From a virus: 64,000 nt of DNA. Location of the stretch: positions 36,503 through 100,502 of the IMG/VR virus record IMGVR_UViG_3300008113_004623; one strand, 5' to 3'. Each line of letters starts with the position of its first letter. The stretch's first letter is position 1. The notes under the pieces are model-generated. The model was not told the DNA's origin and did not search any database. It worked only from the letters and a program-made list of their open reading frames with translations. Shown piece after piece: positions 8,101-36,244 of the stretch. The position numbers were made by a program, and so were the translations under genes.

Positions 8101-8323
8101 TAAAAATACATTAAGTGGTAGAGCTTCTGTATTTGCTACTCAAAATCAAGCAGCTGATTATTTATTAAATCAAACTAAAAGTAAACAGAACGTATCTTCC
8201 CTAAATAAATATCTACCATTTAATACATTTCAAATGGGTGGTATGTCTATACCAGGAGTAAATGGAACTGTAGTAGCATCTAGTCCTTCACTTTATAAAA
8301 AATATAAAACTAAAAAGAAATGA
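5159..8323 (+). CDS. Multi-module cargo protein with GNAT-like and possible ADP-ribosyltransferase-like domains
   Basis: 1054 aa, no Cys seen. Segments are delimited by MQDGG/LQDGA/MQSGG/FQMGG. GNAT-like RRGTNTYK..W; ART-like VYR..GRW..A..Y. Confidence 0.55.
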   Translation: MEIKSLYKKFLKYSKPTAPKSKVQSKKIDMSKRGLWDKNKNKVIVPSNRITMKGPKGEQDFFKRPVLATGLQSGKQVLMQPGREYYFPNDEQVFEKRMQDGGTVQTNMLQPIKKDEESLPIILESLFSQFQKSKEEFGVEPEESESMGTPSLQDGALVKDEDIRMDPIEINAELPPWYIRYPRKALRAANAKLEDWGAQYAQKISDATGGKDWYKEANPFGSLALEFLNAPQYTATYGVTGKVQTPSEAMDIQNPYGAFAIDAITDPMNLVGVGVSSKARNIFSQVPDRLNSLGRKRGLRNSSPLVLENNQLPPPPFKLKFMPDGSIQSINNLDLNYIPGSYRPDYAETAFKSKNISGLTKEEALAKVSAKDKDVVSKMSETDFEQTVLKPTGEIVSYKPSLSLNLGFNPTTRNLSLQDTIPMTPTEYTNIFNSRLDVLNDIIAKNNKSGINYTVKELSPSGALRFNTPAQVEKLGLTNNMIDDLTRRGYIDSKGNIDPRLQDYVDRWGSNTRDIAEGEAVWGVQINPGLWQGEVQDIANVDYFKAIPGLNMNNTTASVFSDAMPRRGTNTYKSINEYLKRMNLGRVKPGFNSQTQFSSGLWQDAIKKGNAFGYFGNPTTVYGSMRTVAPIGIGAAAGASQLQNNKQGMQSGGFSYTPPSRRAFTTSYQQPTRSTSDNTRVVTPNVSDATRAMVADQRAREAAAKRSGVIYAGTPESDYEKAKKAASFVEQSKLADGFATPLDYVLDTVNPTQYVFNATDLVGNQVSAVKNLAQGNFQEAGSDLLEAQMNALSLVPITKAAAPVLKPILKQATRYGDDVIQTSKIAGRPALPKYKDVYRAEHAGFNQVATPQDITGRWAANSADEASYYVQNLKDPTTGKVMNAFSGEQVPVRIMKQRVPEYKYNQQFAEGMPEEARIMSMGPGRLSRTELDQVLGPGATKRFETNQFSNQDLAAMQTAPFLFNPNEGILDAGIINNLRQGKNTLSGRASVFATQNQAADYLLNQTKSKQNVSSLNKYLPFNTFQMGGMSIPGVNGTVVASSPSLYKKYKTKKK

Positions 8324-13553: not shown

Positions 13554-16500
13554 ATGGCAAAAAAAGTAGATAGTTCTTTTAACTTTTTAGGAATAGATCC
13601 TCGCTTAAATGTAGGAGACCCCAACGTTGTTAAGGCAGCAGTAGACCAATCCATTAATAGTAATCCTGTTTTATTTAATGCTTATCACACTAAGGAAATC
13701 CTAAGACCACAATTAGATGAAATAAGAAGAGAGAAAGAAACCGAACGTTTACGTAATATAAACGTAAACTCTTTTAATTATCTTGCTAAGAAGGCGGGGT
13801 ACGACGAAGGTTATGCTTCTAATCTTTATAACAGAATACAAGACTTACCTAATTTACCTGAGCAACAAGCAACTGCTGCCTACAATGAATTAGCAAAAGA
13901 ATTAGATGATTTAAAAGAAAAAGGAACTACTTCTTCTTTTGGTGGATTTGATTACTTATCTGATATAGGTGAAGGTCTTTTTGAAGCTGCGCGAGGTGCA
14001 ACTAATATTAGCCATGAACTTTTTGGTGGAGCTAAGTACACTGACCCACAAGAATGGTTAGGTAAAAATAAAAATGACCAAACCGCACAAGCTGTGCTCG
14101 ATGAGTTATTTACTCCCTCAGACATTTATAAGTATGCTAAACGTGTATTAGATAGTAAACAGAAAGAAGTATCTATTAATAAGTTTAAACAGAACTTAGG
14201 TGATGTTGACGGAGTTTTGCAGTTACTTGAATCTAAATCAAGAAATTTAAATAGTGGAAATAGTTTTGATGACTTACTACTTCCTGTATTAGAGAATCAA
14301 TTTAGAACACCTGGTTCTGATTGGTACCGAGATGCCGAAGGAGAGTTAAGTCCTCAGTATGTAAAAGAATTTCAAAACTATGTTAAGCAAGGTTTTCAAG
14401 AAAAGTTTGATGATCAAAGTTTTGTAACTAACATTTTAAATAAACCTGCTCGTTACGCAAAGTATGATTTAGAAACAGAAGCACTTAATGACTACAAGAC
14501 AGTTCTACAAAAAGGATTGTTTGACTTAGTTGATGAGCGTAGACAACTTCTTGATGAAGAAAAACTTGTAAAAGATAGCCCAGAAGACAAACAGTACATC
14601 AACAAAATTGAGCGTATTAATTCTCAATTAGACAAACTAGTAGCAAGAGAAAAAAGTATTGATAAAGTATACGGAGTATCTGTAGGAGACCGTAGTGGAT
14701 TTTTTAAAGCTACTTTAGGCAGTGGCTATATGGCTTTTAGAGATTTGCGTGACTTTTTAACTCCAGATTATTTTCAAGGCCCTGAGTCTGATGCAAATAC
14801 TCAAGTTATTAGAAATGCTATGTATAAACCTGAAGTACTACGATATGATAAATACGGAAATCCTGTATTATCAAATCAAGTATTTTATGAAAGTGCTTCG
14901 GGTACAAAAGCAAACTGGCGTGGCTTTTTTGAGTCTGGTGGGGCTATTGTAGGTGACATGGCACCTGCTATTGCTACGGGGTCTATACTTGCGCGTGGAG
15001 TTTCTTCTGGTTTAGCTCTTGCAGGAACTGAAGCAGGCTCTGCAACATTAGGTGCTAGAGTAGCTTCTACAGCAGCAAAGACTTACGATAAAGTAAACAA
15101 GTACGGAAGTCTTCGCTTAGCAGATCGTATTTCTACTTTTGCAACTATCTATGCAACTACTAATGAGCGTATATACGAACAAGAAAAGAAGTGGGGAGGT
15201 AATGCTGAAGAACGGGCTCGTTATTTAGCAGTAGCTGAAGCCGCATCCGAAGCTATAGGTTTTCCTGATGTAGGAATATTAAAGTTAACTCCATTTAGTA
15301 GAGGATTAGGTGCGGCCAGTAAAACAGCTGCAGGAATATCTTTAACTAGATCTGAGTTAGCGAAGGCATATTTACGTGGAGGTTCTGAATTTGCTAAGAC
15401 TGCAGTTAAAGCCAACTTAGTAGAATCTTTTGAAGAAGAAATGGCTTTACTTGGAGAAGCACTTGTAAGTCACGCCTACGCAGATGAGTATGCTCGTGTA
15501 GGTAGAGAACAAACAGAATTTACTGGAGAAAACATAATTGATACTTTTGTTGAATCATTTAAAGGAGGTCTTCTTTATAGTGGTTTAATGACAGGCATGA
15601 ATCATTACAGAGCTACTCGTAAGAATGCTTTGTTAGATCAGGCTGAATACGAGGCCGCAAATAATCCAGAATTATTTAAAGCTAAGTTGAAGGAGATGCA
15701 CCAAAAGAATCCTTCAGAACTTTCTGAAAAGCAATTAGCAGATGCTATTGTAACTATAGATAATCTTTCTAACACATTTAAGTCTCTGTCTCAAATAGAC
15801 AACTTAAAAGATTTAAATACCTTTTTCGATGATGAAGATGCACGCAGACAACTATTCACTAAAGCTAGGCAGCGTGATGTTCTACGTTCTATTGACTTTG
15901 ATAGTTTGACTCCCGAACAACAAGAAGAATTTACTAAAGCTAAGTTAGGAGGTAAGATTACTAAAAAAGCAACTGCTGAGTATAATAAAGCTCGTCAACA
16001 GGTAAGTGATTTCTTAGCACAAACCGAGGGACAAACCCTCAGTAAAGAACAAACACAAGAGTTTGTTGCTTTGCAGTTAAAAGCAGCACAACTTCGCAGT
16101 ATTGCTAATACTATTGATTTACGTAAGCTTACTGATTCTCAGATGGAAACTTTGGCTTCTATGGGAATAATAGAAGATAAAGACTTTCAGTTTACCCAAG
16201 AAGATTTGGATAAAATGATTGCTGAAGTAGATACTGATATTCTTAAAACAGAGAAACGCGCTTTTCAATATGCTGAGATGACTAAGGCGGAGAAAGCAGA
16301 AGCCATCAAAAAAGCTTACGATAAAAAGATAGAAGCTATTAACCAGGTAGAAGATCCTACGGTTTTGTTCGAGTCATTAGTAGCGTTAAAAAAAGACTAC
16401 GAATATTTAGAAAAAAATGCTTATGGAGTAAATCCAGAAGTTCTTGCAAACAAAGCATCGCTTTTAGATGCTTACCAACAAAGATTCGATGCTCTAACTC

Positions 16501-19500
16501 AACGCGATGCCTCTGGTGCTAACTTGTTTGAAGCAAGTCTCCGAGAACTAGATATTAATAAAGCTATTACTGATTATAATATTTATGAATTAGTAAAGTT
16601 ATCTTCTCGACTAGATCAAAACAAGGATCATGTTGACAGTGCTTTTGCAGAGAATTTAAACGAAGAATTGTTAAATGCTCAAGCACAGATTATAGAAAAT
16701 ATACAAAAACTACAGGGAGATCAAAAAATACAAGCTTTAGCTAAGATTATGGATCAAACTGTAAAGTTTAATACATTTACTTATTTTGACCAAAAAGCAT
16801 TTAGTGAATTTATTACAAGTTATACTTATGGCTTAGATTCAGAAACAAACGAAGAAGTAGAGCAGACTATGACTGTTTCTATTACTCCAGAAGAATTTGA
16901 AAAAGTAAGAGCCGAAGTTATTCGGATGCGTGGTATACGTAAGAGTAACTCAATGGCAGCCACTGGTCGTGTAGATAATGTTAGTGTACCAACTGAAAGC
17001 GAAGAGCAAGAAGATGCTATGCGTACATTAGCTCGTAATGTTGCTGCAGCATCTAGTGAGTTAGATGATGATGGTTTTTCTGAAAAATCTGCTTTAGAAA
17101 AACAATACACTGATTCCTTCTTAAAAAACAAAGAAGTAACAGAAGCAGTTCAAGCTTTAAAAGATAGAGTATTTTCTTTATTTAACGAAGGCAGCGCACG
17201 TGCAGCATCTGTTCTAAACGCATTTAATACCTTACTAACAAATAAAGATACTATTTCTTTTGACGCACAGCTTCAGCAAGTAAAACAAGCTCTTAAAGCT
17301 GAAATTGATGCACTACGAAATGTAGATAAAAACTCTAAATCTGCCAGAGCACTAGAGGGAGTTTTGCTAGAACTAGATTTGTGGACTAAGGCAGCAAAGA
17401 AAATGGTTATTCAAAATCCTGCTGCTAATTTAGGTGACTTAACTAATTTAGAACCTAGCAGAACAAATGTTGTTGATCTTCAAAATGATGTTTTGGAGGA
17501 AGAGTTTGGGGACGAGTTAACGCCAGCACAAGTTCAAACTAAACAATCTGAGATTGACCAACTGAATCAAGAAGCTCAACGTAGACGTTCTCGTCTACTA
17601 GACTTAACTAGTCCAGCTAGAAGTAATGGAATAGAAGTAACTCCAGATAATGTCATAGTAACAGATCCTGCAGTAAAACGTAGAGTTGCATTTATTGATG
17701 CACTTTCTACGATGGCAGATACTAAAGTTAAGATTCTAAACAAACGACAGTTTTTGCGTGAGTATTTAGCTAGCAAGTATCCGCAGAAAAACCAAGCAGA
17801 CATTGAGCAAGACTTAAAGAGTCTATTAACGTTCTTTACTAATATACCTCAAGACATAGTAGACAACTGGGATACCTTAACTAATCAAGATGAAATTCTT
17901 GCTTCGGTGCATCAGTTACTAGGTAAAGAATTTTTTGATAAAGGGCAGCTTAGATACTATGTAAAGAACAAAGCTCAAGGATTACTAGTTAATCCTGAAG
18001 TTATAATGACTGCCGCAAGTAAAGACGGTAAAGTTTTATTACAGGACTCTTACCCGCTTGAGTTAAGTTTTATTCAGAATACGGGTGAAGGCAATACTAA
18101 AGAGTTTTCTACTGTACCGTGGAGATTGTCAGGACGTATACAAGGAGAATCTACAGACGTTAAAATCTTACCTGGAGATATTATTGCTGCCCATACCGAA
18201 ACTTTTGCAAGCAAAGAGTTATTACAAGAATTTTTAGGAAAGAATGATAAAAGCGTATTAGTTGACTATGAGATCAGTGAAGGGGTTCTTACTAATAAAG
18301 ATTCTTTTAGCACAATGGCAGAAGTTGAATCTTCTGATATTAAAAACGCTAGTCTTAAAGATTTTTCAATTCCAACACAGCCAGGATCTCGCGTAGCAGG
18401 CAGACGCTACAAATTTAATTTAGGTCGTTTGTACTTTAACAATAATGGTAATCCTGTTATTTTACAGAACAATAAACTTAACGAAGAGGAAATACAAGCA
18501 ATAGCTGAGTTAGTATTTAATCCTCCAACTGGAAATATTAGTATGAGCCAGTTAGATGAGGCTTTATTTGATCTAATTAACCAAATCGATAAGAACAATC
18601 GTATTGTATTCTTCCCAGCAGAGGCGCTTAATCAAATTCAAGCTGACGGTAGTTTAAAAACTTTTTACGAACAAATGTTAGTACCTTCATTAGTTCAAGA
18701 AGTTAACGGCAAACGTAAGTACCAAAAGCTCACAAAAGAACAATTCATTAAAGAGTTAGGAAACTATTACTATAAAGTAAGTCCAACTTTCTTATCTGGG
18801 GGCGCACGCTTTAACGAAAGCATTACTCGTTTCCAAATGAAAGACGGTGTTCCTGAAGTATTAAAACAGCCATACTTAGACTATATTAAAGAAACACATC
18901 AAGCTCCTATTAATAGTGAGGGAAATGTATCTACTGTAGTTAATAAGATTGTCTATCCAAGTACTACTGACTTAGCCGCACAAACTAAAGCTTTAAATCT
19001 ACAAATCAAGAACGACCAACAACTAACCAGTAAAGGAAAGACAGTAGGAGGCGTTAATCCAAATAGTAATGCCCGAAGTTTAAATCCAACTGCTCCACAG
19101 TTAAATAGAACTGCTTCAGCTACTTTGAATATGATTCCCTATGCAGAGATTAACTCTTTCTTAGCGAAGTTTGGTATTCCTGTAAAAATTGGTTACTCTG
19201 AAGAAATTTATAACCAATTAGTATTAGCAATTAAAAAAGACCCAAGTATTCTAAGCCTAGTAACTGCTCGCATCGAGAATAACCAGGTTGTTACTTCTGA
19301 GTATGATGGAGGAAATACTAAAGGAATTAACTTACTTATTGGTTCAGTAACTCTTCCTAATGGTCAAAAATATAAAGTGTTTTTTAAACCTGATGAGCAA
19401 AGCGCAGGACTGAACTTAAACATCAATAAAATTGAGGGAGGATTTACTGCAAGTGTGAAAAACACTGATGTTCCTAATCCTACTCCTTCTAATGCTCCTA

Positions 19501-20702
19501 GAGTTCCCTCAGCTGTAGCATCAGATGTTGTAAATAAACTTAGTGCTTTAAACGAAAAAATTCTTGTTATAGATCCTACAGATGAAAAATTCTATATAGA
19601 AGTAGATAAAAACGGGCAAAGAATAGGTGATAAAAAATATCCTAGAGTTTCTAGTCTTACAGGTAAAAGAGAATTTAGCAATAAGACCGCAGCAAATAGA
19701 GGAACTATTATTGATTCTTTACTTAGAGAATTTATTAAGGGGAATATTAAAACGGAAGGCCAAATGATGCAGGCTTACAAAAAAATTAAAGAAACTAACC
19801 AGTACCCTACAGATACTTTTACTGTTCCTTTTATTTCTGATTTATTTGCTACCTTTAATGGATTTGTTCAAAGTAATCCTAACTTAGTCTTTATTGCCGA
19901 TTTACCTACTTTATGGGGTACTTTTAATGGCGTAGATCATGCGGGTACTATTGATTTACTAGCAATAGATAATACTAATGGTAAAGTTTATATAATAGAT
20001 TTAAAAACATCTACACAAGATAGAACAGATACTACTAATAAATTCTACGAAAGTTATACTTCCGCAGATACAATTCAACAATCAGCTTACGCAGAAGCGT
20101 TAGCACAACGTACAGGAATTGTAATAGACGGATTAAAAATTTTCCCAATTCAAGTGGAATTATCAAGAGAGACTCAAACTTATGAAAGTGCTATAGGTAA
20201 CAAAAGAAATTCTGGCTATATTTATGAGTTGACTCCAGATCCTAAGTATTTCCCATCAAAGACAACTCCTCCTATAAAAAGTCAAGTACCTTCCAATATT
20301 AACGTAGAGTCAGTCACTTACCAAAATAGTCAATATACAGTTCATTTGTCTAAAAATCCTTTTTCAGGATTAAATGAGATTGTGCAAATCTTTAATAAAG
20401 ATAATGCAGAGATTGATGTTAACAGTACTACAGGTAAAAACGTAGCAAGTCAATTAGACTGGGGAAAGATTAATCCTAGTGCGCCTAAGAAAATGTCTCC
20501 TGCAGACTTAATGGATGCAGCTAACCAAACGCCTCAGGCTCCTGCTGCCCAAAAACAAACTAAACCTTTATCTGCTGCTGTATTTAATTCAGAAGAAGAA
20601 AATCAAGGTAAACAAAATAAAGACGCCTGTGCTAATCCTACCGATAGATTCTCTCAACAAGGTACTACAAAGGTTCCGAGATCTATTAGAAAGAAACCTT
20701 AG
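13554..20702 (+). CDS. Giant ejection protein 1 with Gly/Ala-rich putative membrane segment and C-terminal PD-(D/E)xK nuclease
   Basis: 2382 aa; AGTIDLL..YIIDLKTS..QQSAY nuclease motif at about 19940-20100. Confidence 0.75.
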   Translation: MAKKVDSSFNFLGIDPRLNVGDPNVVKAAVDQSINSNPVLFNAYHTKEILRPQLDEIRREKETERLRNINVNSFNYLAKKAGYDEGYASNLYNRIQDLPNLPEQQATAAYNELAKELDDLKEKGTTSSFGGFDYLSDIGEGLFEAARGATNISHELFGGAKYTDPQEWLGKNKNDQTAQAVLDELFTPSDIYKYAKRVLDSKQKEVSINKFKQNLGDVDGVLQLLESKSRNLNSGNSFDDLLLPVLENQFRTPGSDWYRDAEGELSPQYVKEFQNYVKQGFQEKFDDQSFVTNILNKPARYAKYDLETEALNDYKTVLQKGLFDLVDERRQLLDEEKLVKDSPEDKQYINKIERINSQLDKLVAREKSIDKVYGVSVGDRSGFFKATLGSGYMAFRDLRDFLTPDYFQGPESDANTQVIRNAMYKPEVLRYDKYGNPVLSNQVFYESASGTKANWRGFFESGGAIVGDMAPAIATGSILARGVSSGLALAGTEAGSATLGARVASTAAKTYDKVNKYGSLRLADRISTFATIYATTNERIYEQEKKWGGNAEERARYLAVAEAASEAIGFPDVGILKLTPFSRGLGAASKTAAGISLTRSELAKAYLRGGSEFAKTAVKANLVESFEEEMALLGEALVSHAYADEYARVGREQTEFTGENIIDTFVESFKGGLLYSGLMTGMNHYRATRKNALLDQAEYEAANNPELFKAKLKEMHQKNPSELSEKQLADAIVTIDNLSNTFKSLSQIDNLKDLNTFFDDEDARRQLFTKARQRDVLRSIDFDSLTPEQQEEFTKAKLGGKITKKATAEYNKARQQVSDFLAQTEGQTLSKEQTQEFVALQLKAAQLRSIANTIDLRKLTDSQMETLASMGIIEDKDFQFTQEDLDKMIAEVDTDILKTEKRAFQYAEMTKAEKAEAIKKAYDKKIEAINQVEDPTVLFESLVALKKDYEYLEKNAYGVNPEVLANKASLLDAYQQRFDALTQRDASGANLFEASLRELDINKAITDYNIYELVKLSSRLDQNKDHVDSAFAENLNEELLNAQAQIIENIQKLQGDQKIQALAKIMDQTVKFNTFTYFDQKAFSEFITSYTYGLDSETNEEVEQTMTVSITPEEFEKVRAEVIRMRGIRKSNSMAATGRVDNVSVPTESEEQEDAMRTLARNVAAASSELDDDGFSEKSALEKQYTDSFLKNKEVTEAVQALKDRVFSLFNEGSARAASVLNAFNTLLTNKDTISFDAQLQQVKQALKAEIDALRNVDKNSKSARALEGVLLELDLWTKAAKKMVIQNPAANLGDLTNLEPSRTNVVDLQNDVLEEEFGDELTPAQVQTKQSEIDQLNQEAQRRRSRLLDLTSPARSNGIEVTPDNVIVTDPAVKRRVAFIDALSTMADTKVKILNKRQFLREYLASKYPQKNQADIEQDLKSLLTFFTNIPQDIVDNWDTLTNQDEILASVHQLLGKEFFDKGQLRYYVKNKAQGLLVNPEVIMTAASKDGKVLLQDSYPLELSFIQNTGEGNTKEFSTVPWRLSGRIQGESTDVKILPGDIIAAHTETFASKELLQEFLGKNDKSVLVDYEISEGVLTNKDSFSTMAEVESSDIKNASLKDFSIPTQPGSRVAGRRYKFNLGRLYFNNNGNPVILQNNKLNEEEIQAIAELVFNPPTGNISMSQLDEALFDLINQIDKNNRIVFFPAEALNQIQADGSLKTFYEQMLVPSLVQEVNGKRKYQKLTKEQFIKELGNYYYKVSPTFLSGGARFNESITRFQMKDGVPEVLKQPYLDYIKETHQAPINSEGNVSTVVNKIVYPSTTDLAAQTKALNLQIKNDQQLTSKGKTVGGVNPNSNARSLNPTAPQLNRTASATLNMIPYAEINSFLAKFGIPVKIGYSEEIYNQLVLAIKKDPSILSLVTARIENNQVVTSEYDGGNTKGINLLIGSVTLPNGQKYKVFFKPDEQSAGLNLNINKIEGGFTASVKNTDVPNPTPSNAPRVPSAVASDVVNKLSALNEKILVIDPTDEKFYIEVDKNGQRIGDKKYPRVSSLTGKREFSNKTAANRGTIIDSLLREFIKGNIKTEGQMMQAYKKIKETNQYPTDTFTVPFISDLFATFNGFVQSNPNLVFIADLPTLWGTFNGVDHAGTIDLLAIDNTNGKVYIIDLKTSTQDRTDTTNKFYESYTSADTIQQSAYAEALAQRTGIVIDGLKIFPIQVELSRETQTYESAIGNKRNSGYIYELTPDPKYFPSKTTPPIKSQVPSNINVESVTYQNSQYTVHLSKNPFSGLNEIVQIFNKDNAEIDVNSTTGKNVASQLDWGKINPSAPKKMSPADLMDAANQTPQAPAAQKQTKPLSAAVFNSEEENQGKQNKDACANPTDRFSQQGTTKVPRSIRKKP

Positions 20703-20737
20703 TCCATAAGTCTATTTTTATAATTTTTTAATTAACT

Positions 20738-20745
20738 TATATTTG
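20738..20745 (+). promoter_or_regulatory. -7 promoter element TATATTTG
   Basis: Intergenic, 15 nt before the RNAP ATG. Confidence 0.7.
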
Positions 20746-20760
20746 TATTAAAACACGAAC

Positions 20761-26700: not shown

Positions 26701-29328
26701 TCAGAAGACTATAAGAATAACTACGGAGGCGGAGGATCAACTATCACTTCTACTTCTGTATTTTCTCCAAGAACTTCTATTAAGATTTTTAGAGAGAATG
26801 CAACTGGTAAGAAAGCACTAGGTATTGACGCAAAAACCAACGCACTACATAAACTCTATCAACAAGTAGGATTACAGTATACTAACCCTATTGCAAGAAT
26901 GTACTTATTAAAATCTAATAAGACAGCGGATGGACATATTATTTTAGGCGGCTTGTATGATGCGAACAACGAGTACTTAATCTCAGATATTATTAATGAG
27001 TTTATCAACGGACACGTAGACATTGAGAAAGAGGAGTGGATTAACTTCTTTAATGCAGATAAAAACAGAACTAGCGTAATCTTACAGATGGTGCTTAGTG
27101 GTACTCCAATTAAAGATGCTGTGTTAATTGCTAACCAACCTATTGTTCAACACTTTTTAAAATCTAATAAATTAAGCGAAACTGCTCAGTTAATCGGCAT
27201 TGAGCGAAAATTTATTAGTACTTATATTGCTGAAGGATTGAGAAAAATAGGAATGAGTTCCGTGATTGTTAGATCTGGAGGAAAATTTTCTTTACAGGGT
27301 ACTATTGAAAAGATGCTTAAAGAAAACTTATTCTCTAAAGCCTTAGACAATTTATCAGAAGCTAATTTTACTCCGTCTGTTGAGAACACGAAGGCCGCTT
27401 ACAATAAAATGTTTCAAGAAGCTAATTCTAAGAATCAAGGTGATTTAGCAGCCCAACTAGTATTTCTAAGCCAATACTATGTAGCTAGTGTAATGAATGA
27501 AGAGTTATTAGACTTAACAAGCGTAGTAGACTTTAACACGGCTAGTTATAGAAACTTAAATGATTTCCACTTAATTCGTTCAACTCTGAACACTGCTAGA
27601 GAAAACTTTAACGAGAGTGCTGTTAATCAAATTCTACAAGACAGTGTGTTAGCACCTTTTAACATAACAAATGAAGCTATGTCAATAGGTCAACAGGTAT
27701 TTGATTTAATGGGTTCTAGAGAATACCAGGATATGTTGAATAACTTTGTTAATTTCTATGGCGATTTCTGGACTCCTGATCAACGAGTAACTGAAGTTAA
27801 TAACTTTAACAATGCAATTGTTCACGCATTAATACAAAGGTACTCTGAACTAGACGGTGAAGATTTTTATACTAAGTTTGGTCCTAAATCTAACTTCTTA
27901 ACTAAAGGAGCTACGGGTAACTTATTCGCAGAATATATAACTTTATTTGGGAGAGGATCTAAAGTAGCAGATGCTAACTTAAAATCTTTTGTTAAGAAGA
28001 ATCTATTTTTAAGAAACTTCCGTAAGAAGGATGTAGAAAAGACTAAGAAGTTTTATATTGCTACATTAGATAATGAAAAAGACGTTGTGTTTACAAATGA
28101 AATGCAGAAGTCTTTCACTGATGGATTATTCTATGATAAATCTACGCCAGAAATTAATGAGCGTGTTCAGAAGTTCTTTAGTAATTTAGCAAACGCTACA
28201 ATTGTAGGACAAGGTTTCTCTATTAAGTTTAGAAGTATTCACCCATACTTACCTATACAGGCATTAGATAGCTCTGTTAGAGCATCTTTAGAACTTCGTA
28301 GAATTAAGGGAGTCCTCTTTACTGAGGAAGCCCAAGAGAAGCGCCTTAAAGAAGATGCAGAGTTACAACAAAACATGATTGATTTACTCTCATTTATTAA
28401 AGACGTTGAAAAGATATACGCTCGTAATACATACTCAAAGCGTGTAAAGTCTTTAAACTACTGGAAATTCTTCCCTGATTATGTAAATGCTACTAAGAGT
28501 TCAGGTATTCGTATTTCTTCTAAAGGCAAAAAACTAAATGCTGCTTTATCTTTAAATACTGCAGAAGCACTGAAAGAGAAACGCATCTCTGGCGATTATA
28601 AAATTGAGTTTAGAGGTAAACAATACGCAGATGCAGGAAAAGCTTACGATGCGTTTAAAACTGTTTACGCAGTAGCAGGGGCTGAGAATGAAGAAAATAT
28701 ATCTAAGGCACGTTTGTTACGCGAAATTTTTGCAACTCGTTTCCGTCAACACTTAAATTTATTTGGTGCAGTATACAATAAAGGCGGTGCAGACTTTTTG
28801 CTTAAATCTTCTTACAATGAAGGTGATGATTTCTTAAAAACAAATACTACTTCTGTAGGCGCTTATGTTCAATCACTAGCAGATGCTTATAATGATGTAG
28901 AAGATGAGATGCTATCACAATGGCTTGAGTTTTCTGAAAAACAAAAGAACGAAGATCAACCAGCAGAAATTGAAGACAGTACTGCATTTGAACCCTCTGA
29001 AGATAACAACAAAAACAAAGCATTGTATAACGAGGAGGGCGGAGTAGACTTTGATGACTTAGGCAATATGACTGCTCCTGGAATGAAGTTAAATTCTACC
29101 ACACCAAAGAAAGCTAACAAAGAAGCTCCTTCTACTATAAGTACTCCAATCTTTAGTATTAAGTTACCAGATCGTGTACTTGATGTAAGTTATGCTCAAG
29201 CGACTCCAGAGTTTTTGTCTACACAAATTCCAACATTAACTCAAGAACAGCTTCAAGGTTTATCTAATCATATTAGAGAGAAGTTACAGGAGGATAACCC
29301 TAATATAGATTTTAGTTCGGAATGCTAA
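20761..29328 (+). CDS. Virion-packaged single-chain DNA-dependent RNA polymerase with N-terminal zincin motif and C-terminal NADAR-like domain
   Basis: Catalytic GSDFDIDK (DFDIDK 26128-26145) preceded by RIPVQG; ADGQAY; HESWH..EEVLAEEF zincin motif near 21409. Confidence 0.92.
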   Translation: MICPNFSNPSIRKDFYNLVGIVGEDFAYYLWDKNNGLPLTLQANPANLNEAIANPLFEALDEQFNGNSTKATLGVAITFSSAFQKKYVGFNRATPERQVQLINDYINKLDITLEQATQNYIKRANQINRTFKRAVSVTQEAVTREDLSKDPNSVINQIEDVTAQDRTAAYEFLKRNKIAQNIRFTNAQKVVNSGAYAQWTKHGLTLFKGSDYTDIYHESWHEFTQWYLSPIEKALLYNTVRNREGTVTIGDLEIPYYSLTNRQVEEVLAEEFRAYSIQRNRNEAVAAEPRIRNFFERMYDFLKWLFFGPEKTKKPESTFEFENVSAMFSALYEGNVDLSRRAETNIVEDSLNRSTALTLPILTDEGLQEIELSPLVGAEVISYVSYSIYKQMRDQNIGMSLLLNPEHKKNLIPQLYTAVRAELNDVLDNLEIKIEQAETSNNMAALEMLEDQYANITALVNEDEAWNRVVALHQSTTQGELFNIDADVTVSVEENIENRIDEAPAEEKTRNEVQYGDKSNVNPLELYDPYVIELIKSLPDLVNINGQVVPSTGSTLGLPKNGNFKHNKNLLQNILSGSTSYEDAIQRLIEASSVSPQLTYLIQLLPSPVSETLTLDEITLKNQFMQALSMPRVDPYSVKAIEKTEDTTVDNVITSKKVIQFNTFYISTLTQDALLEYLDNEFQISAASDFKSETDQSTIKQRSFVNKSINGLEFATFSTASVLDAYKDIDSTTSYKTLFEFMNDAFGVDLYQGISEQYLFDKRGDIIIANSPYTESQLNALTQVIVASYNKIKLYHLINNLEGKSPIINKLKNEVPSSVETPAKTYISDVKKSLVTALNTLSNNFNTLNAKDQEQFKEIVDLFTNSIKNNNNLRTERQILFRAIENYYNKVVKSASYLNDENNMEWSIREWQHVVTQASSINNARTLADLTGHLNPATNNFVGVSKLLAKAFSQETGERKLNRDEDNVLFELVNISGYSTKVEGKKTINLNPDDKLIQDFIGFLKDGLVENLRFGAKSTSLGVRVNGSRNERLFYDRSRFSYSADTDIVRLDPKVMDTFLDYLRYELNRMFDDRAESTEKEKRGFDLIILKDILPNKVQEFKDIIKNSTQDKETTVNNIINQINTVNRAEFDTAVTLYFNEEVRAFRTDLEEIIGEGDAKFAEVFGTKENINEVIADYVTHYYTQQIEFLHLFVGDPSNFQVKGENWRELFKRLGASISPGKQPLIDSQFLNSFNNSPNGYLGRGLERLYKQSQNPNAEARVYDENFTYVQYKDVKSFTEGQAEVYQRELIEGYANWLSSQDKAKKPIEAYRQEAADIFKTTIDGVTTQKKEADGQAYATLDFVRFYLNSIGEWTPKQEAAYQHELKVAEKILEYRATPTETKLTELRTLIQNSNAGILLSLKLGYWGSPIDNPNYITLGKYSVAPLIPSTLFETDLEDQMSNMLIGGVDFITFDSGNKMALPVSSLDFYKKEGKGNEERLVVNDIPQKNIVTFPISGLRRQQYIAPKFKEEATLSTQLVKLVFSNFYTNGELNENISKVAGLPEKIDRLQKAFINDLSVIVESEKAKIYAAIGAELKGDRVTSIDAEAFSDWIKKEFDKKDVPQSVYDYLIIENNNFKFSLDVAPHRALFESVLASALSKRVLRPKMFGEALVQVSSLGFNQAGTRFTNPTREQVRKYGNSGLRDYGRIVNGKHQPADIKIAFNSKKYGALLNLDYKGSKIETLDRLNEALLDDAWVELHSNKITLVGVRIPVQGLNSMEHFRVRQFLPEVAGPIIIVPPSLVTKSGSDFDIDKLFMYEPELDSEGNFIERTPEFVKNPKAVYQYIRAKKILITELKSLNTILENKRQEFIRNNGSNTVEAKVYDSLIASNGMLIRPLKNRKKELTDGEESTLLDEVTLATFSLSKFLETQKDNPEIKSLQKKLKKTQELLASFKGYSIKSAKAGASNGLIQTISEILSEPAIMPQFLQPNDSPILKQLSEDYKNNYGGGGSTITSTSVFSPRTSIKIFRENATGKKALGIDAKTNALHKLYQQVGLQYTNPIARMYLLKSNKTADGHIILGGLYDANNEYLISDIINEFINGHVDIEKEEWINFFNADKNRTSVILQMVLSGTPIKDAVLIANQPIVQHFLKSNKLSETAQLIGIERKFISTYIAEGLRKIGMSSVIVRSGGKFSLQGTIEKMLKENLFSKALDNLSEANFTPSVENTKAAYNKMFQEANSKNQGDLAAQLVFLSQYYVASVMNEELLDLTSVVDFNTASYRNLNDFHLIRSTLNTARENFNESAVNQILQDSVLAPFNITNEAMSIGQQVFDLMGSREYQDMLNNFVNFYGDFWTPDQRVTEVNNFNNAIVHALIQRYSELDGEDFYTKFGPKSNFLTKGATGNLFAEYITLFGRGSKVADANLKSFVKKNLFLRNFRKKDVEKTKKFYIATLDNEKDVVFTNEMQKSFTDGLFYDKSTPEINERVQKFFSNLANATIVGQGFSIKFRSIHPYLPIQALDSSVRASLELRRIKGVLFTEEAQEKRLKEDAELQQNMIDLLSFIKDVEKIYARNTYSKRVKSLNYWKFFPDYVNATKSSGIRISSKGKKLNAALSLNTAEALKEKRISGDYKIEFRGKQYADAGKAYDAFKTVYAVAGAENEENISKARLLREIFATRFRQHLNLFGAVYNKGGADFLLKSSYNEGDDFLKTNTTSVGAYVQSLADAYNDVEDEMLSQWLEFSEKQKNEDQPAEIEDSTAFEPSEDNNKNKALYNEEGGVDFDDLGNMTAPGMKLNSTTPKKANKEAPSTISTPIFSIKLPDRVLDVSYAQATPEFLSTQIPTLTQEQLQGLSNHIREKLQEDNPNIDFSSEC

Positions 29329-29337
29329 TACTTGAAT

Positions 29338-29345
29338 TATATTTG
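29338..29345 (+). promoter_or_regulatory. -7 promoter element TATATTTG
   Basis: Intergenic, 16 nt before ATG 29362. Confidence 0.65.
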
Positions 29346-29361
29346 TATAAGTTAACTTAAC

Positions 29362-32300
29362 ATGCCTAGACACTGTATCATTGAATTTAATAACCCAATA
29401 ACAGGACAAAGACAAACGTCTTTGTTGGGTTATATATTAAACCAACAAGGAATTAACGTCAATGATGTTAATGCTTTATTGGAAAACTTATATCAATCAA
29501 AAGCTTCTCAAGGTTTTACAAATTCAATTAAACTAGGAGTACCTGAGTTATTTGAATCTAATCCTGAGTTAGCTAATGCTGTATATGAAGCTGCTGGGTT
29601 TAAACCCAATAAACTTAATCTTGATTTTAAGATTACTACAGAGGATGGGATACGTATTAATGTTTTTTTTGGTGGAGAGAACGTAGGGGGTATAGATCTT
29701 CAGAAATCTGATAACAATTATTTTGTGCGAAATGTAGGAGTTTTTGATAAAAATCAAGGCATTGGAACTGAAATATATAAAAAAGCAATAGAGTACGTAA
29801 CGCAACAGGGAGGAGTTTTAAAGCCAGATTTCTTGTCTGCTGCTGAAAGTTACTCAATTTATAAAAAGTTAGAAAAAGAAGGTTTATTTAAGATAGCTAG
29901 TGTATCTGAACAACTTGAAGATGGTAGGTATGAAATAATAGGAGAAAGTACACGACAACTTCCTTTTTGGAGGTAGCGTTTTCTATGTAAGTACTGACAA
30001 AAGGGAGGCTAAAGGGTACGCTAAAAAAGAAGGCAGTATAGTATCTTTATTAATTAATGCAAAAAATGTACAATTCCAAAGAGATGCTTTTTTTGGTAAT
30101 AGACCACAAAGTAAAGCGGAGATTCAAGCAGAGATTGATGCAATTAAAAATTCAAAGTTTGCGTTAGAATTTATAGGCGAAGTGGTAGAAATAGAAGTAT
30201 TTCCTACTTTAGCAGAAGCCACTGAATTTTCTGAACGAAATTCTGGTTGGGAACCATTAACGGAATCTGTAAAACAAAATAAGTTAAAAGAGCTTAATAA
30301 CGCTTTAGTTACTACTGAAGAATTTGATACTGTTTTAACAAATAACGATGCTGGTGAGAGAACTATTTACATTGTAAATCAAGCTGAACAAATCCACATA
30401 CTAGGAAACAAACAAGATATAGAAGGATTTAAAAAGTTTGTAGAGCAGGAAGAACTTCCTGATACTTTTAGTGAAAGGACATGGAATACTAATAATAATC
30501 TAAGCACAGACTTTATTGAACCTCGTATTTCCGACTTAGCTGAAGAGTTTGACTTAGAGATTGTGCCTGGTCTAGTAGATCAAATTAATTTGATCCAAGA
30601 CTTTTATGACTCAAAGAACATTCATTTAGGTACAAACTTAAACTTATTACAAGCTAAAGATATTATTAAAGATGCGCAAGACTTAGGTTTGTCTTTAGAG
30701 TTGGAGGTAATTAATCCTGAAGAACAACCTTCAGATAGAATCTATCGTGTATATCCAGTAAATCCAACTCAAGCGAATAACGAGGCAGTCAATAATTTTA
30801 TTTATGAACAACTAAGTGCTTACTATGAACAAGTAGGTGCGCCCAATGCGTTAAACACAGTTTCTAATTATGTAGATGTAACAAACCCTACTTTAGTGGG
30901 GATGCTTAAAAACATTCTTAATGATCCTAGTACTACTCAGTTTGAAAAGGACATTATGAATACTATGCTGACTCTCTTAAAGCAGTTTCCCGAAATTAAC
31001 GTAAACTTCAGCAAAGACTTAATGTTATCTGAATTAAATCCCGATAACTTAGTTCCAGCAAGATACGACGCAAAGACTAACACTATTACGTTATATACAG
31101 GTCCTTTATCTAATTATAATTCAGGGCAGTTTAAGCACATTTTAATGCACGAGTTAACACATGCTTTGTTTTTCTCTACATTAAAAAACCCACAGACACA
31201 AGCAGAGAAAGTATTTGCATCAGAGATAAAACGTATTTATGAATACTACAAGGCTAAATTTCCGAACGCGGCTTATGTAGGAGAATTTTACGGACTAACT
31301 AATGAGCATGAGTTTTTATCCGAGTTCTTTAGTAATCCAGAGTTTCGTTCTATTTTAGAAAAAGAAGCACCTGTAGTACACGGATCTATTTATCAATCTG
31401 TCTTAAACTTTTTTAAGAAGTTGTTTAATCAATTTTTGACAAACAAGAACAGACAAGATACCCAATACTTAACCGATTTAACTAAGTATTTTTTTAACAA
31501 TGTTCTAAGTTCAAAGATTAATACGTCAGGAGTTTATACTTCTGAAGATGCTTTTAACTATGAAGTAACTGATCAAGTGTATAACGATTTCTTAAAGAGT
31601 ATTCCAGGAAAAAATTCTTTTGATAAATTCTATGGTGCATTAGACAGTTTGCTTAATAATCCTAAAATTAACTGGCAGTCTATATTTAAGCACGCTAAGG
31701 CTACAGGTATTCAGCTTAAAGTTCTAACTGACTCCGTAGATGTTTTACAAAACATAGAAGTAGGCGCACTTACAAGAAGCGATTTAAAAACTTCGTTTAA
31801 GGCCGTTATGACACACTTATCAGATACACATACTTTTTTGCGTAATCTGAAAAGTAGTTTGAGTGAATTAGAGAAGAACCAGTCTTTACCTGAACATACA
31901 TTATTTAGCAGAGCGTATCATGCAAAAAACATAGGACAACACTACAAGAAATACATTGAAGACTTTAAAAGTCTAATGGATAATCCTAGTAGCTCAAGTC
32001 CAATGGGTAGATATATTTACAGCATTGAGGCCATTTCTACAGAATTAATTGGGGGATTTGACAGCATTGCGGCTCCCGCTATTGCTTCTAAGTTTGCTGA
32101 TTATTTTTGGGAACAAACAAACCAACTAAGAAAAGAAATAACTGCAAGGATACAAGACCTAACTAATAAGTTAGAAACTGCTAATAGAGCAGGTAATACT
32201 AAAAAAGCCCAAGTTCTTCAGAAAGAACTAACTAAAGAAACAGAAAGACTTAAAGCTATTGCCACTAAACAAAACCTAGAACAAGCTTTAAAGGGAGTCT

Positions 32301-35300
32301 TAGTAAATGGAGATAGCAAGAGTACTCTTGGTTCTAGACTAGGTGCTTTCATTGAATCTGCTGCATTAAGTGGGGATTTAATTGAGGGTAGTTTAGCAGG
32401 TTTTGTAGATGACCTACACTCAAAGGCTACAGAAGAAGCATTAGTTTTAGAGAAAAGAATGAAGTCTTTGTCTACAAGACTACAAAATCATTTAGAAGCA
32501 CAAGGTAAGAGAGCTGTTACTTCTTTAGGATTTGGTGATATTTTTGGTAAGTATATTCGTAGAGTCACTGTTAAAGAGATTAAACGCGTAAATGGCGTAT
32601 TAGAGTTATCTGAAAGAGATACTTATGTTCTTCAAACAGAGATGGATGAGGTATCTTACTTGAATCGACATAACGAACTACGATATGAAATCTTAAAGTT
32701 AGAAAACAAAGAGAATAAAACCGAAGATGATTTAAAGCAATTAGAACGGTTAATCGACAACTTAGCAGATTTTGAAGAACAAAATCTTGAAAGTTTGTAT
32801 ACTGAAGAATATCATCGTATTCAAAATATATTATCTGAACCTGCACGTAAAGCCCGAGAAGAGATTATTAACCAGATGCGTCAAATTCAGGTTAATGCTA
32901 CACAGGGTGATCAAACCGATGAAGACTTAGATAGATTAGAAGATTTAAAGACTCAACTAGATGAGTTGGAGAATCCATTTGGTAAGACTCCTGAACAGCA
33001 AGAAATTGCTTACAATATTCAACAGTGGAAACAAGAACGTAGAAATGCTAACTTATATGTTTATAAACTGACCGAAACCAATCGTGCAATCTTTAATGAT
33101 TTCTTCGACGCAAAGAAAGCAAAAGTAAGAGAAGCCGAATTAAGTTTAGCAAATCTACTAGGCATAGCAAATGCTGAATCTAATCCAAACCTAGCTGAAG
33201 AAATTTCTCAAGCACTCCAAACTAATACATCAGACCGCGTAGAACTTGCAAAAGAAATACTTCGTTTAGCTCAAGCTGACTTAGCTAAGTTTAAAAGAAA
33301 CAACGTAGTTAAAAAGGTTAAGCCAGAGTTTTACGAACTACGTAACTCTATCTTAGAGGGAATTGAGAACATTCAAAGTAAGTACAGGACTGAGATGGGC
33401 GGTGTAGAAGCTATTAGTGAACTATACCAAGAGTTATTTACCTTATTAAAACCCTACAAGAACCAAAACGGAGAGTATGTAGGATCAAAAGCGCCTACTG
33501 AGTTAGTAGAGTATGTTACTGAAGACGGTGAGGTAGTACAAATTAACGTAGCGACACGAGTTAAGGACATAGAAAATCGTATTGACCGTATTCGTGATGT
33601 AATGAGCGAAGGTGTACGTATGTCTAAAGTAGACAAAGATAACTTGTTTGCTTTATTTGATGAACTAAAGAACATTCAAACAAAAACTACTACTGAAGAT
33701 TATAAAAAGGTAGTCGCTGTAGAACAAGCTAAAGCTCGTACAGCAGTTATTTCTGAGCTAGGAGAGGCGTACAAGGATTTAACAAATCAACAACTACAAC
33801 GTGCTATACTTAAAAAGTATAGAGCCTCTGAGTGGTATAAGCAAAATCATAGAGATTTTAAACCTACAGGGGAAGGAACTCCACTATTTCATTGGAGGGT
33901 TACTTTACCTACTAACCCTAATTTTATTTCCGAAGAAGAGCCTTCTTTCCGTTGGTACACTATTGAAGTAAACGACGCCACTGATCCTAATACGGGTAAG
34001 CCTCTATACATTAATAAAGACGTACAAAACTTTAGATATAGTAAACGAGTACCTTTAAAGCGCACTAGCGGATTTAGAAACTCTGAATATCAAACATTAG
34101 ATTCTGTTGAGAAAGAAATTATCAGTGAAGTAGTAAGTATTTTAGGAGAGTTAGAGGATGGCTTACCTACTAAATTAAAGTTAGGAACTGAATTACCTGC
34201 TTATATGAAGACAGGATTAGAAAGTCTTAATGGAAAAGTAGGCAATCTAAAAGACCAAATTACAAGTGTTGCAAGTAATTTGTGGGATAGAGCCACTGGT
34301 AAAGACCAGGAAGATCCTACAGATAAAGTTTCTTTATTAGATAAACTGAACCCTAATAAGTCAGAGTTAAACAAGTACAGTGATAGAATACATTTAAAGT
34401 ATTTAACTCCAATAGAAGCGGATAAAATGAGCATTAACTTCTTTGAGTCTATTACTCAGTTTGGAGCAGATGCTTTACGCTTTAAAAACTTGTACGAAAA
34501 TATGGCTTATATCTTTGGAACTAGGGACTTAGTAACAAAGAATTTAGGCGGAACCGTAACTGAGAGCGTAGTAAATAATATTATTGAGCGTAAGGTAAAT
34601 GGAAAATCTCGCGTATCGCTTACAGGTAATCCTATTTTAAATGCTATTGGCTACATGAGTGATAAACTAATTGTAGGACTTACAGCTAAGGCTACTTTAT
34701 CTGTTAACTTACCTTCAGCAGTTAAAAACTTTACCGCAGGTAGTTATAACATATATACTCAAGCAGGAAGATTTGGTATTAACAGACAAGATATAGCAGT
34801 AGGAAAATCAAAAGCAGCTATGCACTTGCGAGATTTTTATAGAGCTAGTGTAGAAGATGGTGTGTCTACTCCTTATATTCAAAAGGTTAGATACTTTAAT
34901 ATTATGCCAGAAGATCATTTAAACGAAGTTGGTAAAAAAATGTATCGTACTTCTTTAGATAAAACGGCTAATTACAATCCATTGAGGATGTATGCTTTTA
35001 CTAGACAGGCTTTAGAATTTGAGATGCGTGTAGGAGTAGCAGAAGCTTTATCTAAACAACACCTTATAGAACTTAATAACGGACAGTTTATTCCTATTAT
35101 GGAAGCCTATACCTCTGTAGGGGGAGTATTGGTGCCTCGTGCTGACATAAAAGACTTAGCAGGATTCTCAAATCAAGAAAGTTACTTTAAAGGTAGATTA
35201 AACTTAATTAACAGTTTAATTCATGGTGCTTATGGTGCAATGGACAAAGCTGAATATCAGCGTTATGCTATTGGTCGTTTTATAATGATGATGCGTAACT

Positions 35301-36244
35301 GGTTTGGTTATCAGTGGTTAAGCAGATTTGGCTCACGTAGAATGTCTATTAGAGCAGGTATGGAGTTCGAGGGCATGTACAGAACCTTATGGAATGTATT
35401 AGGTTACAAGGGTAAGTTTTGGCAGTTGATGAGTTATTCAGCTACTTCAGATCTACTAAGCAATAGAGAGAAAGAAAATCTTAAAGGTGTTATGTTTGAT
35501 ACTTTAGGAATTTCTGTTATGATGGGTCTTTCTCACCTTATCAGCCAAGCTGTGTACTCCGACGATGACGATGATGTAGATAATCCAATGGCTTATTTAA
35601 TGTTATATAATCTTCTTTACTTAGAAGATGAATTAAATACATTACATCCTGTTTTTGGTCCTGCAGCTATTGCTTATTCTCGTATCGAAAATAAAGTAAG
35701 TGGAGACAACTTTGCTACCTATTACTTTAAAAAATACTTTACAGAGCCTTTCCGCGTATCTCAAGATATAGGAAGGGCTATGTATGAATATTCTCCTTTC
35801 GGAGATTTAGGAATGTTTGATGAGTATGTGCCTTTAAGCAAGAACGGTAAAGTAATGAATCCTAATCGTTACAAACCAGATCCTTTCTTACAAGGTATGC
35901 CTGATATCCTTGCCCGTACTCTTAAATTGTTTGCTTTAGATAAATCTGTAAACTATATAATAGGAAACCAAGAGTTTATGTATCGCAAGTACGATTACTT
36001 AAATCCTAAATATTTTACTGATTCTTATGAAAAAGAATTACGTCAGGCAAAAAGAGGACAGCGTTCAAATAAACTTGAGATTAAAGCAATCAAAGAAGAG
36101 ATAAAGTTAATTGAAGATCCAGATACTAAAGAGTTGTTGTATGAAAAAATAGAACGCCTCGAGGCCGAAATAGAAAGAGATAAAGAAGCACAAGAAATTT
36201 TAGAGCAGAACTACTCTGATTACACAGGAGCTGATAGAAGATAA
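29362..36244 (+). CDS. Giant ejection protein 3 (GNAT, ART-like, zincin, helical body), split by a +1 frame break at about 29942-29973
   Basis: Frame 1 runs 29362-29976. Frame 2 is open from 29942 into the 30182-36244 ORF. GNAT NQGIGTEIY; HELTH zincin at 31148-31162. Confidence 0.75.

Follow-up and report, generated by a model that had tools for sequence, protein, structure and literature searches.

How the Crassvirales load, order and pass through the tail a cargo of ~5.5 MDa is an acknowledged open question (PMC10172136), and one with a bearing on the most abundant human gut viruses, which belong to this order. Here, we approach it from a stretch of viral DNA of 64,000 nucleotides (nt), positions 36,503-100,502 of the IMG/VR record IMGVR_UViG_3300008113_004623 (100.5 kb, with a completeness estimate of 86%), which we call the window and to which all coordinates refer. 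On its plus strand, between positions 5159 and 36244, lies a series of large genes for proteins of 1054, 937 and 552 amino acids (aa), a giant protein (giant 1), a 2855-aa protein and a further giant (giant 3). The last three we identify, by position and partly by homology, as the crassvirus virion RNA polymerase (RNAP) and two associated cargo proteins. Why do such proteins contain almost no cysteine, and why do the few cysteines that they do contain lie where one giant ends and the next begins?

A scripted recount finds four cysteines in the 10,084 residues of the cargo proteins and giants, against 97 in 7,955 residues (1.22%) of the 25 other open reading frames (ORFs) of at least 150 aa in the window, a depletion with a binomial P of ~2e-47. 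All four lie 23 residues or fewer from a terminus facing a neighbouring giant. Recount and codon check agree with an initial annotation of this DNA, which had assigned giant 1 only C2359 and the RNAP protein only C3 and C2855, had described the 552-, 937- and 1054-aa proteins as cysteine-free (zero in each case) and had seen no cysteine at the outer ends, that is, the N-terminus of giant 1 and the C-terminus of giant 3. Its description of giant 3 as a protein with C5 alone is right about the cysteine and wrong about the gene, which is not one ORF under translation table 11 but carries a +1 frame break. The proteins themselves are already known; what is new is the terminal-cysteine joining feature, which is found throughout the order and was previously unnoticed. 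Neither the terminal-cysteine rule nor the cysteines of the cargo proteins are mentioned in PMC10172136 or 10.1101/2020.03.07.982082 (where the word 'cysteine' has 0 occurrences) or in what full-text literature searches returned.

Cysteines at the ends that face a neighbour

Related loci were retrieved by a profile scan with the RNAP alignment, which gave 78 viral contigs with 10-kb flanks, representing 52 RNAP clusters at 70% identity and 29 at 40%, and their large plus-strand ORFs were surveyed. Each junction between consecutive chain proteins was examined for a cysteine in the last 30 residues of the upstream protein and in the first 10 residues of the downstream one, and all 130 junctions (78 loci; 110 distinct peptide pairs) carry both. 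The downstream cysteine is found at residue 3-7, and the upstream one 0-9 residues before the end in 125 of the 130 cases, with an overall range of 0-26; giant 1 orthologues have a single cysteine 0-26 residues from the C-terminus, which in the window's own clade lies 18-26 residues before the end. Intergenic distances at the junctions range from -4 nt to >1 kb, and codons and offsets vary. In complete chains, the first protein is without an N-terminal cysteine and the last without a C-terminal one. Nine apparent exceptions at outer ends are chains cut by contig ends; the truncated partner shows its cysteine in seven of them, and in two no partner adjoins. A strict rule holds across the order: wherever a terminus faces a neighbour in the chain it has one cysteine, and the outer ends have none. 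Elsewhere in the chain, cysteines are rare, with 36 internal ones in 497,835 chain residues (7e-5) versus 0.99% in neighbouring non-cargo ORFs. The upstream cargo ORFs of related loci have 13 in 38,859 residues, and the ~560-aa proteins directly upstream of the first giant in related loci are cysteine-free.

The RNAP protein follows the same rule over a wide range of divergence. Nearly all of its 78 homologues have exactly two cysteines, one at residue 3-7 and one 0-6 residues from the C-terminus, down to 22% identity, and a further 29 more distant giants behave in the same way. Among these 107 homologues, a C-terminal cysteine (seven residues or fewer from the end) is present in all but P0007, which is apparently C-terminally truncated, and the cysteine-free P0094 (see below), whereas the lack of an N-terminal cysteine is confined to fragments, to proteins whose start may be miscalled and to long forms extended at the N-terminus. 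In A1, an alignment of 30 of these proteins, C3 is invariant and the C-terminal cysteine nearly so. Conservation of the terminal cysteines in orthologues, which the initial annotation had named as a check, is thus borne out both here and at the surveyed junctions.

Insertions and fusions alter the number of chain members, and the cysteines change with it. Chain proteins inserted between the others, of 89-1146 aa, always have exactly one cysteine at each end. The larger of these inserted links measure 328 aa (L005), 396 aa (L071), 506 aa (L050), 583 aa (L030) and 1146 aa (L023), and the small ones 169-172 aa, 198 aa and 89 aa; in these, the N-terminal cysteine is C4, C5 and C3, respectively, and the C-terminal one always lies 2 from the end. 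GIY-YIG-like endonuclease genes in the inter-chain gaps of relatives, which are presumably mobile elements, do not follow the rule. Such genes, of the homing endonuclease type, lie at L038:12361-13029, L050:10039-10632, L071:19273-19866 and L050:1-759, and the junctions between chain genes look like hot spots for insertion.

Single ORFs of 3,700-4,800 aa in which a giant 1-like part precedes the RNAP core (L035, L036, L044, L069 and L038) have no cysteine at the N-terminus or at the fusion point and keep only the C-terminal one, facing the N-terminal cysteine of the next protein. The annotations of p-crAssphage and Rudgehvirus show the RNAP fused to the third protein, and here only the first-junction pair is kept, with the gp45 cysteine 1 residue from the end and the gp44 cysteine at residue 3. 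A phmmer comparison of Steigviridae with Intestiviridae proteins gave no match, and the fusion point in p-crAssphage gp44 is therefore that of the record annotation. The distant giant P0094 (4368 aa, present in NCBI and Logan) contains an RNAP core, two HExxH motifs and a giant 3-like C-terminal stretch, has no cysteine at all and looks like an all-in-one fusion, to judge from its sequence. In each fusion, precisely the two cysteines of the joined ends are missing and any other junction is unaffected; this is the comparison that the initial annotation had proposed.

The same rule is seen in the cultured phages. In phi14:2, the sole cysteine of g067 is its last residue, g066 has one at residue 3 and one 1 from the end, and g065 has one at residue 3; the annotation of all three as virion proteins comes from tandem mass spectrometry (MS/MS). 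In crAss001, gp50 has cysteines at residue 5 and 8 from the end and one internal cysteine, gp49 has one at residue 5, and gp47, whose gene lies on the other strand from those of gp50 and gp49, has a single cysteine 2 from the end. Because of this strand change, and because codons and contexts vary, the rule must act on the proteins and not on the gene boundaries. A gut set (L079-L088) was also covered, including crAss001, p-crAssphage, crAss002, Rudgehvirus, IAS virus, cr125_1, cr4_1 and cr273_1. The gut Suoliviridae and IAS virus keep the junction cysteines and tolerate more internal ones, whereas avoidance is near-absolute in aquatic and environmental lineages, a contrast that may reflect anoxic versus oxic habitats. 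Internal cysteines number seven in p-crAssphage gp44, nine in IAS gp056 and 13 in cr273_1 gp35, versus ~7 per 100,000 residues in environmental chains.

A few gut records have peculiarities of their own. In Intestiviridae, one small cargo protein upstream of the first giant has a single cysteine 1-10 residues from its C-terminus (p-crAssphage gp47, L080; crAss002 gp30, L082; Rudgehvirus g49, L084) and no obvious adjoining N-terminal partner; this cysteine could serve a homodimer or a further joint. The cysteine of crAss002 gp33 (L082:12545-12660) is at residue 35, where an internal Met33-Ser-Cys fits the MxC start of its orthologues, and the annotated start is probably 32 codons too early. In IAS virus (L085:14117-23099), the 'molybdenum carrier' gp055 (cysteine at residue 5) and the RNAP gp056 overlap by 11 nt, with X residues near the end of gp055, and the two are probably one RNAP gene split by sequence ambiguities.

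Candidate pairings of the terminal cysteines

The terminal-cysteine pattern suggests that the giants are clipped head to tail into one delivery thread, and we assign a probability of about 0.6 to the reading that disulfides join them tail to head into a chain. The C-terminal peptide of each protein would dock on the N-terminal module of the next, and the two thiols would bond, most simply as a disulfide formed after the particle leaves the reducing cell; crAss001 virions do contain structural disulfides in the tail (PMC10172136). With links that lie at the ends and run tail to head, three to six gene products would make up one linear, unbranched thread of uniform N-to-C polarity, which could be drawn through the tail channel without loops and arrive as one set of partners, and which the reducing cytoplasm of the host could split back into separate subunits. 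The purge of all other cysteines would prevent stray cross-links from jamming the channel, and the links would be the post-translational equivalent of the gene fusions in other lineages. We are more tentative about the model in full, and place it slightly short of even odds: plug-and-socket end modules with one disulfide per joint would allow three to six products, together 6,000-8,000 residues, to be packaged as a unit, to leave in order and to be unzipped in the host cytoplasm.

The termini have the character of small modules. An N-terminal module of ~35 aa, MxCPN...P..(F/W)..L....G...A(Y/W), in which C, P and one A are invariant (alignment A4; C3, P4 and A27 in RNAP numbering), heads the RNAP in the window's clade (window 20761-20870) and the inserted link in L005 (L005:18541), and in many other clades, those with giant 1-RNAP fusions among them, it stands at the start of the third protein. 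It is also found at L035:18073 and L028:18483, and its invariant Cys-Pro recalls heme-regulatory CP motifs. Giant 3 begins with a different mini-domain (alignment A3), in which M1, C5, N11, P12, G15, S20, Y24 and L26 are invariant. The predicted fold of its residues 1-70 consists of a hairpin (residues 7-20) and two helices, with a predicted local distance difference test (pLDDT) score of 74-83 over residues 1-40, and would place Cys5 just before the first strand. The C-terminal end of the RNAP protein (alignment A2) has an invariant cysteine with a phenylalanine four residues upstream. Across all junction types, cysteine is the only invariant residue.

Which thiol would pair with which is indicated by the peptides around the C-terminal cysteines. 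The 198-aa link in L017 ends in ..GDLDSIDFQEDMCEF, and the corresponding RNAP end in L019 and L020 is ..GNLDDLGFEEDTCEIV; immediately after each of the three comes the third protein, with MSCFAKIK or MSCIAKIK as its start. The carriers of this '..GDLDxxxFxEDxCE.' peptide start differently, with MAKACNIT in one case and MNACSIKG in the other. Similarly, 'LENTEFEVxKCRED' stands before MSKGCVIK, whether it is carried by the L005 link or by the L024 RNAP. The C-terminal junction peptide thus tracks the downstream partner and not its carrier, which favours pairing between neighbours, as does the loss in fusions of exactly both cysteines of the fused junction with the other junction untouched. The tail-to-head joining of the three giants in gene order, as the initial annotation had it, is in this way supported by the orthologue survey and the fusions; the bond itself is a proposal drawn from comparison of sequences, and such a chain might also set packaging stoichiometry and ejection order, as that annotation suggested.

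Several considerations weigh against the disulfide-linked chain, beginning with the indirect nature of the case for a bond. The 78 loci were all retrieved through RNAP homology and share ancestry, and their junctions cannot be counted as separate evolutionary events. Virions are put together inside a reducing cytoplasm, and the habitat of gut crassviruses is anoxic; oxidation would therefore have to come later or by another route. Searches of the 100.5-kb record gave neither a sulfhydryl oxidase (Erv1) nor a glutaredoxin, but with the Erv1 control silent in every genome that negative is uninformative. The giant 1 cysteine of the window's clade, 18-26 residues from the end in a basic tail, would leave a short dangling stub and does not make a strict end-to-end joint. 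Finally, giant 3 is frame-broken in the window; if the break is real and not bypassed, C5 sits on a stub of 204 aa, and nothing would tie the body of 2100 residues into the chain.

The terminal cysteines might instead serve a purpose that does not involve bonding between chain members: docking on, or covalent anchoring to, the portal or the inside of the capsid during packaging; a switch, redox- or heme-dependent (Cys-Pro), that turns on the polymerase after entry; or a label for maturation or processing. We consider this unlikely. The invariant Cys-Pro of the CPN module is in keeping with such a role, and the proposal that gp66 is packaged in a self-inhibited form and activated after entry (10.1101/2020.03.07.982082) can be counted in its favour. 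It does not explain, however, why the first protein lacks an N-terminal and the last a C-terminal cysteine, why the members of a pair are absent together in fusions, or why every inserted link has both, and most N-terminal junction motifs are without the proline. As for a mark on an N-terminal cysteine, the residue is at position 3-7, behind residues such as isoleucine, and no free N-terminal cysteine would arise. Such residues after the initiator methionine block its removal.

A second alternative retains the neighbour topology but has the two thiols share a metal ion, in a clasp perhaps completed by Asp, Glu, His or a second copy of the chain, or merely stabilise a non-covalent docking. Acidic residues do recur just upstream of the C-terminal cysteine (DPFKC, DFESKC, EEDxC), the flanking 20-50 residues are conserved, as expected for docking modules, and a clasp would function under the reducing conditions of the cell and without oxygen in the gut, both of which make disulfides less likely. 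Nevertheless, each terminus has a single cysteine, with no CxxC and no conserved histidine, two thiols are a poor ligand set for Zn or Fe, and the purge of other cysteines is most easily explained by the avoidance of mis-paired disulfides; the odds of this explanation seem to us low, a shade below those of a non-bonding role.

Pairing between ends that are not neighbours is improbable. Two-cysteine proteins would close on themselves N-to-C, with the first and last proteins bonded to each other, or like ends of separate copies would pair (N-N, C-C). The cysteine counts (1, 2, 1) by themselves fit self-closure plus a first-last bond equally well, and the L005/L024 case does not discriminate, since both carriers start MICPN. 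The '..GDLDxxxFxEDxCE.' peptide, however, always precedes MSCFAKIK despite the different starts of its carriers; under self-closure, each fusion would break two pairs and force the leftover cysteines to pair anew, and a loop of 2,800 residues would have to traverse the tail as a doubled strand, while homotypic pairing gives no reason for cysteine-free outer ends.

The idea that chance, mis-called gene ends or nucleotide-level boundary signals produced the whole pattern as an artefact can be dismissed almost entirely: some database starts are wrong (as in crAss002 gp33) and giant 3 is frame-broken in the window, but the survey effectively refutes it, with 130 of 130 junctions intact despite varied codons, offsets and intergenic distances, with stop codons immediately upstream of called starts, with the rule unchanged when the first gene is on the other strand and with a window depletion at a binomial P of ~2e-47.

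Three more specific candidates were tried and rejected. A split intein or trans-splicing would call for intein halves containing Hint-domain blocks, ~100 aa at the upstream C-terminus and ~35 aa at the downstream N-terminus; none of the giants has a match to a Hint or intein family, and the termini leave no room for the halves. A lipoprotein-type or N-terminal-nucleophile cysteine does not agree with a position at residue 3-7 and the absence of a signal peptide, nor does a nucleotide-level boundary signal agree with variable codons and with crAss001 gp47 on the other strand.

Relation to other delivery systems

The closest relatives of the system are the virion RNAP sets of cultured Crassvirales (phi14:2 gp66/gp65/gp67; crAss001 gp50/gp47/gp49), which share with the window the same module after the cargo genes, the same DFDID two-barrel polymerase and, in both phages, the same terminal-cysteine rule. 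The window differs from them in having HExxH motifs in both the RNAP and the third protein and a nuclease-like region in the first, and in the 330-aa insertion and frame break of its third protein.

A useful comparison is with N4-like phages (Schitoviridae). The N4 polymerase is a single-subunit, T7-like enzyme made as one polypeptide, and it has no sequence homology to the RNAP protein of the window. The N4 virion RNAP (3500 aa), gp51 and gp52 contain no cysteine, whereas three N4 proteins from the region of the replication genes (DNA polymerase, helicase and gp43) contain 6-12 each; this confirms the earlier remark that ejected proteins such as the N4 virion RNAP lack cysteine. The N4 ejection proteins thus match the interiors of the crassvirus proteins and differ in lacking terminal cysteines, which makes a covalent chain impossible. 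Because the ejected proteins of N4 are entirely cysteine-free, cysteine avoidance appears to be general for ejected cargo, and the terminal cysteines of crassviruses to be a special addition. The giant N4 virion RNAP is thought to unfold or to travel as beads on a string through the narrow tail (PMC13434306).

The ejection proteins of T7 (gp14/15/16) and P22 (gp7/16/20) are the precedents cited for the crAss001 ejection model (PMC10172136). In these phages, too, the capsid stores several separately encoded proteins, which exit by way of the tail before the DNA does. Their assembly is non-covalent, and we know of no description of a head-to-tail covalent linkage among them.

Structural disulfides in virions have their own precedents. 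Polyoma- and papillomavirus capsids contain redox-labile ones, and like these the proposed bonds would arise in the extracellular particle and be broken by reduction upon entry. Redox-labile disulfides have also been seen directly in tail and portal-vertex proteins of crAss001 (PMC10172136). The known cases, however, stabilise a shell or tail lattice, whereas the proposed bonds would concatenate cargo into a linear thread.

A last comparison concerns the polyvalent proteins, which Iyer and colleagues (in 2017) are said to have described as giant multi-domain proteins delivered with the DNA that shuffle zincin-like, nuclease and ADP-ribosyltransferase-like modules. The giants of the window may resemble them, with weak PD-(D/E)XK and ART-PolyVal matches, both below the curated Pfam cut-offs, and differ in that polyvalent proteins are described as single, possibly cleaved chains and not as separate chains joined again at their ends.

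The rule of one cysteine per joint offers a concrete physical model for cargo delivery. If true, it would explain why these genes are split and fused interchangeably among lineages and why ejected proteins avoid cysteine to such an extreme; the sequence alone would reveal which small ORFs belong to the ejected chain, cysteine content would become a readable signature of proteins that pass a viral channel, and the end peptides would be natural plugs and sockets for joining very large proteins. A confirmed bond would amount to a previously undescribed way to build and deliver a multi-protein cargo. If no link exists, such strict conservation still points to a critical function of the termini and calls for another explanation.

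Gene assignments and the broken third giant

As a single query, the 2855-aa protein gave no match in Pfam, PHROGs or the PDB. Nothing close came from scanning viral contigs with a single sequence or from megablast against phage genomes. Homologues of similar length were nevertheless found (the 78 described above), and among the 30 in A1 the motif SGSDFDIDKLF is invariant. The A1 profile has a sole match in the PDB, phi14:2 gp66 (6VR4; E 7.7e-11), which spans the DFDID region, and tblastn matched 91 Crassvirales or crAss-like records, many of them annotated as RNAP catalytic subunit. The label of a crAss-like two-barrel virion RNAP of the phi14:2 gp66 family is therefore supported by sequence similarity. 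By position and in part by homology, the three giants correspond to phi14:2 g067/g066/g065 and to crAss001 gp47/gp50/gp49. The giant 3 body is homologous to phi14:2 g065 (second-frame residues 247-507, E 1.7e-17), and residues 2022-2199 of giant 1 weakly resemble a PD-(D/E)XK nuclease (PDDEXK_1 at 20.5 bits, below the cut-off of 22; PHROG exonuclease, E 1.6e-10). By position alone, the 937- and 552-aa proteins may be the counterparts of crAss001 gp45 and gp46, respectively. Coordinates are collected in Table 1.

Table 1. Features of the cargo module and chain genes in the window
Feature	Position	Strand	Remarks
Cargo-module protein, 1054 aa, no cysteine	5159..8323	+	PHROG search without a match
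Cargo protein, 937 aa, no cysteine	9057..11870	+	ORF list, cysteine recount
Cargo protein, 552 aa, no cysteine	11877..13535	+	ORF list, cysteine recount
Giant 1, 2382 aa, first chain member, no N-terminal cysteine	13554..20702	+	Position of phi14:2 g067 / crAss001 gp47
C2359 codon TGT, sole cysteine of giant 1, 23 residues before the C-terminus; upstream side of junction 1	20628..20630	+	
Virion RNA polymerase protein, 2855 aa, middle chain member	20761..29328	+	Alignment, profile, tblastn
C3 codon TGC, RNAP protein, within the N-terminal MxCPN module; downstream side of junction 1	20767..20769	+	
HESWH (HExxH, zincin-like), RNAP-protein residues 217-221	21409..21423	+	H217, E218 and H221 nearly invariant; no Pfam match
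DFDID catalytic motif of the two-barrel RNAP, residues 1790-1794	26128..26142	+	Invariant in A1; profile aligns to 6VR4
C2855 codon TGC, final residue of the RNAP protein; upstream side of junction 2	29323..29325	+	
Giant 3, first frame, 204 aa	29362..29976	+	Residues 1-51 form the conserved N-terminal mini-domain; the rest is the first half of a lineage-specific insertion
C5 codon TGT, sole cysteine of the ORF starting at 29362; downstream side of junction 2	29374..29376	+	
Overlap of the giant 3 frames, with a +1 frame break at or near a T5 run	29942..29976	+	
Giant 3, second frame, 2100 codons, no cysteine, last chain member, no C-terminal cysteine	29942..36244	+	
HELTH (HExxH), giant 3	31148..31162	+	

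In the cultured relatives, these proteins have been studied in the particle. The crAss001 proteins gp47, gp49 and gp50 and the cargo proteins gp45 and gp46 are present in virions, in the cargo zone of the capsid; exit requires the cargo proteins to unfold in part, and the order of their ejection is unexplained (PMC10172136). Virion packaging and host delivery of the phi14:2 and crAss001 homologues follow from mass spectrometry and transcription assays (PMC10172136; 10.1101/2020.03.07.982082), and fusion of these virion proteins in some lineages has already been described (10.1101/2020.03.07.982082). For the window proteins, we infer packaging and delivery from gene position and cysteine depletion.

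The region 29362-36244 consists of two frames under table 11. The second is +1 relative to the first and has a GTG at 30182 as its earliest start codon, and joining the two requires a +1 shift near the T5 run. Residues 1-51 of the 204-aa ORF align with residues 1-51 of the intact third protein of a related locus (L009), and residues 179-2100 of the second frame with its residues 53-1977. Because both flanks align to this intact protein, the frame break can be placed inside a lineage-specific insertion of ~330 aa (window 29515-30475), which falls between orthologue residues 51 and 53, and comparison with intact orthologues supports reading giant 3 as one gene. The first half of the insertion contains a GNAT-like QGIGTE motif, recognised by eye only, and the second half has a weak ART-PolyVal match (second-frame residues 13-152; 18.5 bits, below the cut-off of 31.2).

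Some smaller observations concern the giants and their surroundings. The HExxH motif occurs twice, towards the N-terminus of the RNAP protein and again in giant 3; published annotations place a zincin domain in one of the three proteins only. Outside the window, a 127-aa frame (G000:C1:15373-15567) has a weak thioredoxin-like match at 16.8 bits, below the Pfam cut-off. A 155-aa ORF among the cysteine-free cargo genes (window 8320-8787) has Cys124 and a cysteine as its final residue, and a 302-aa ORF (window 4244-5152) has C11 and C14 and a weak endolysin-like PHROG match.

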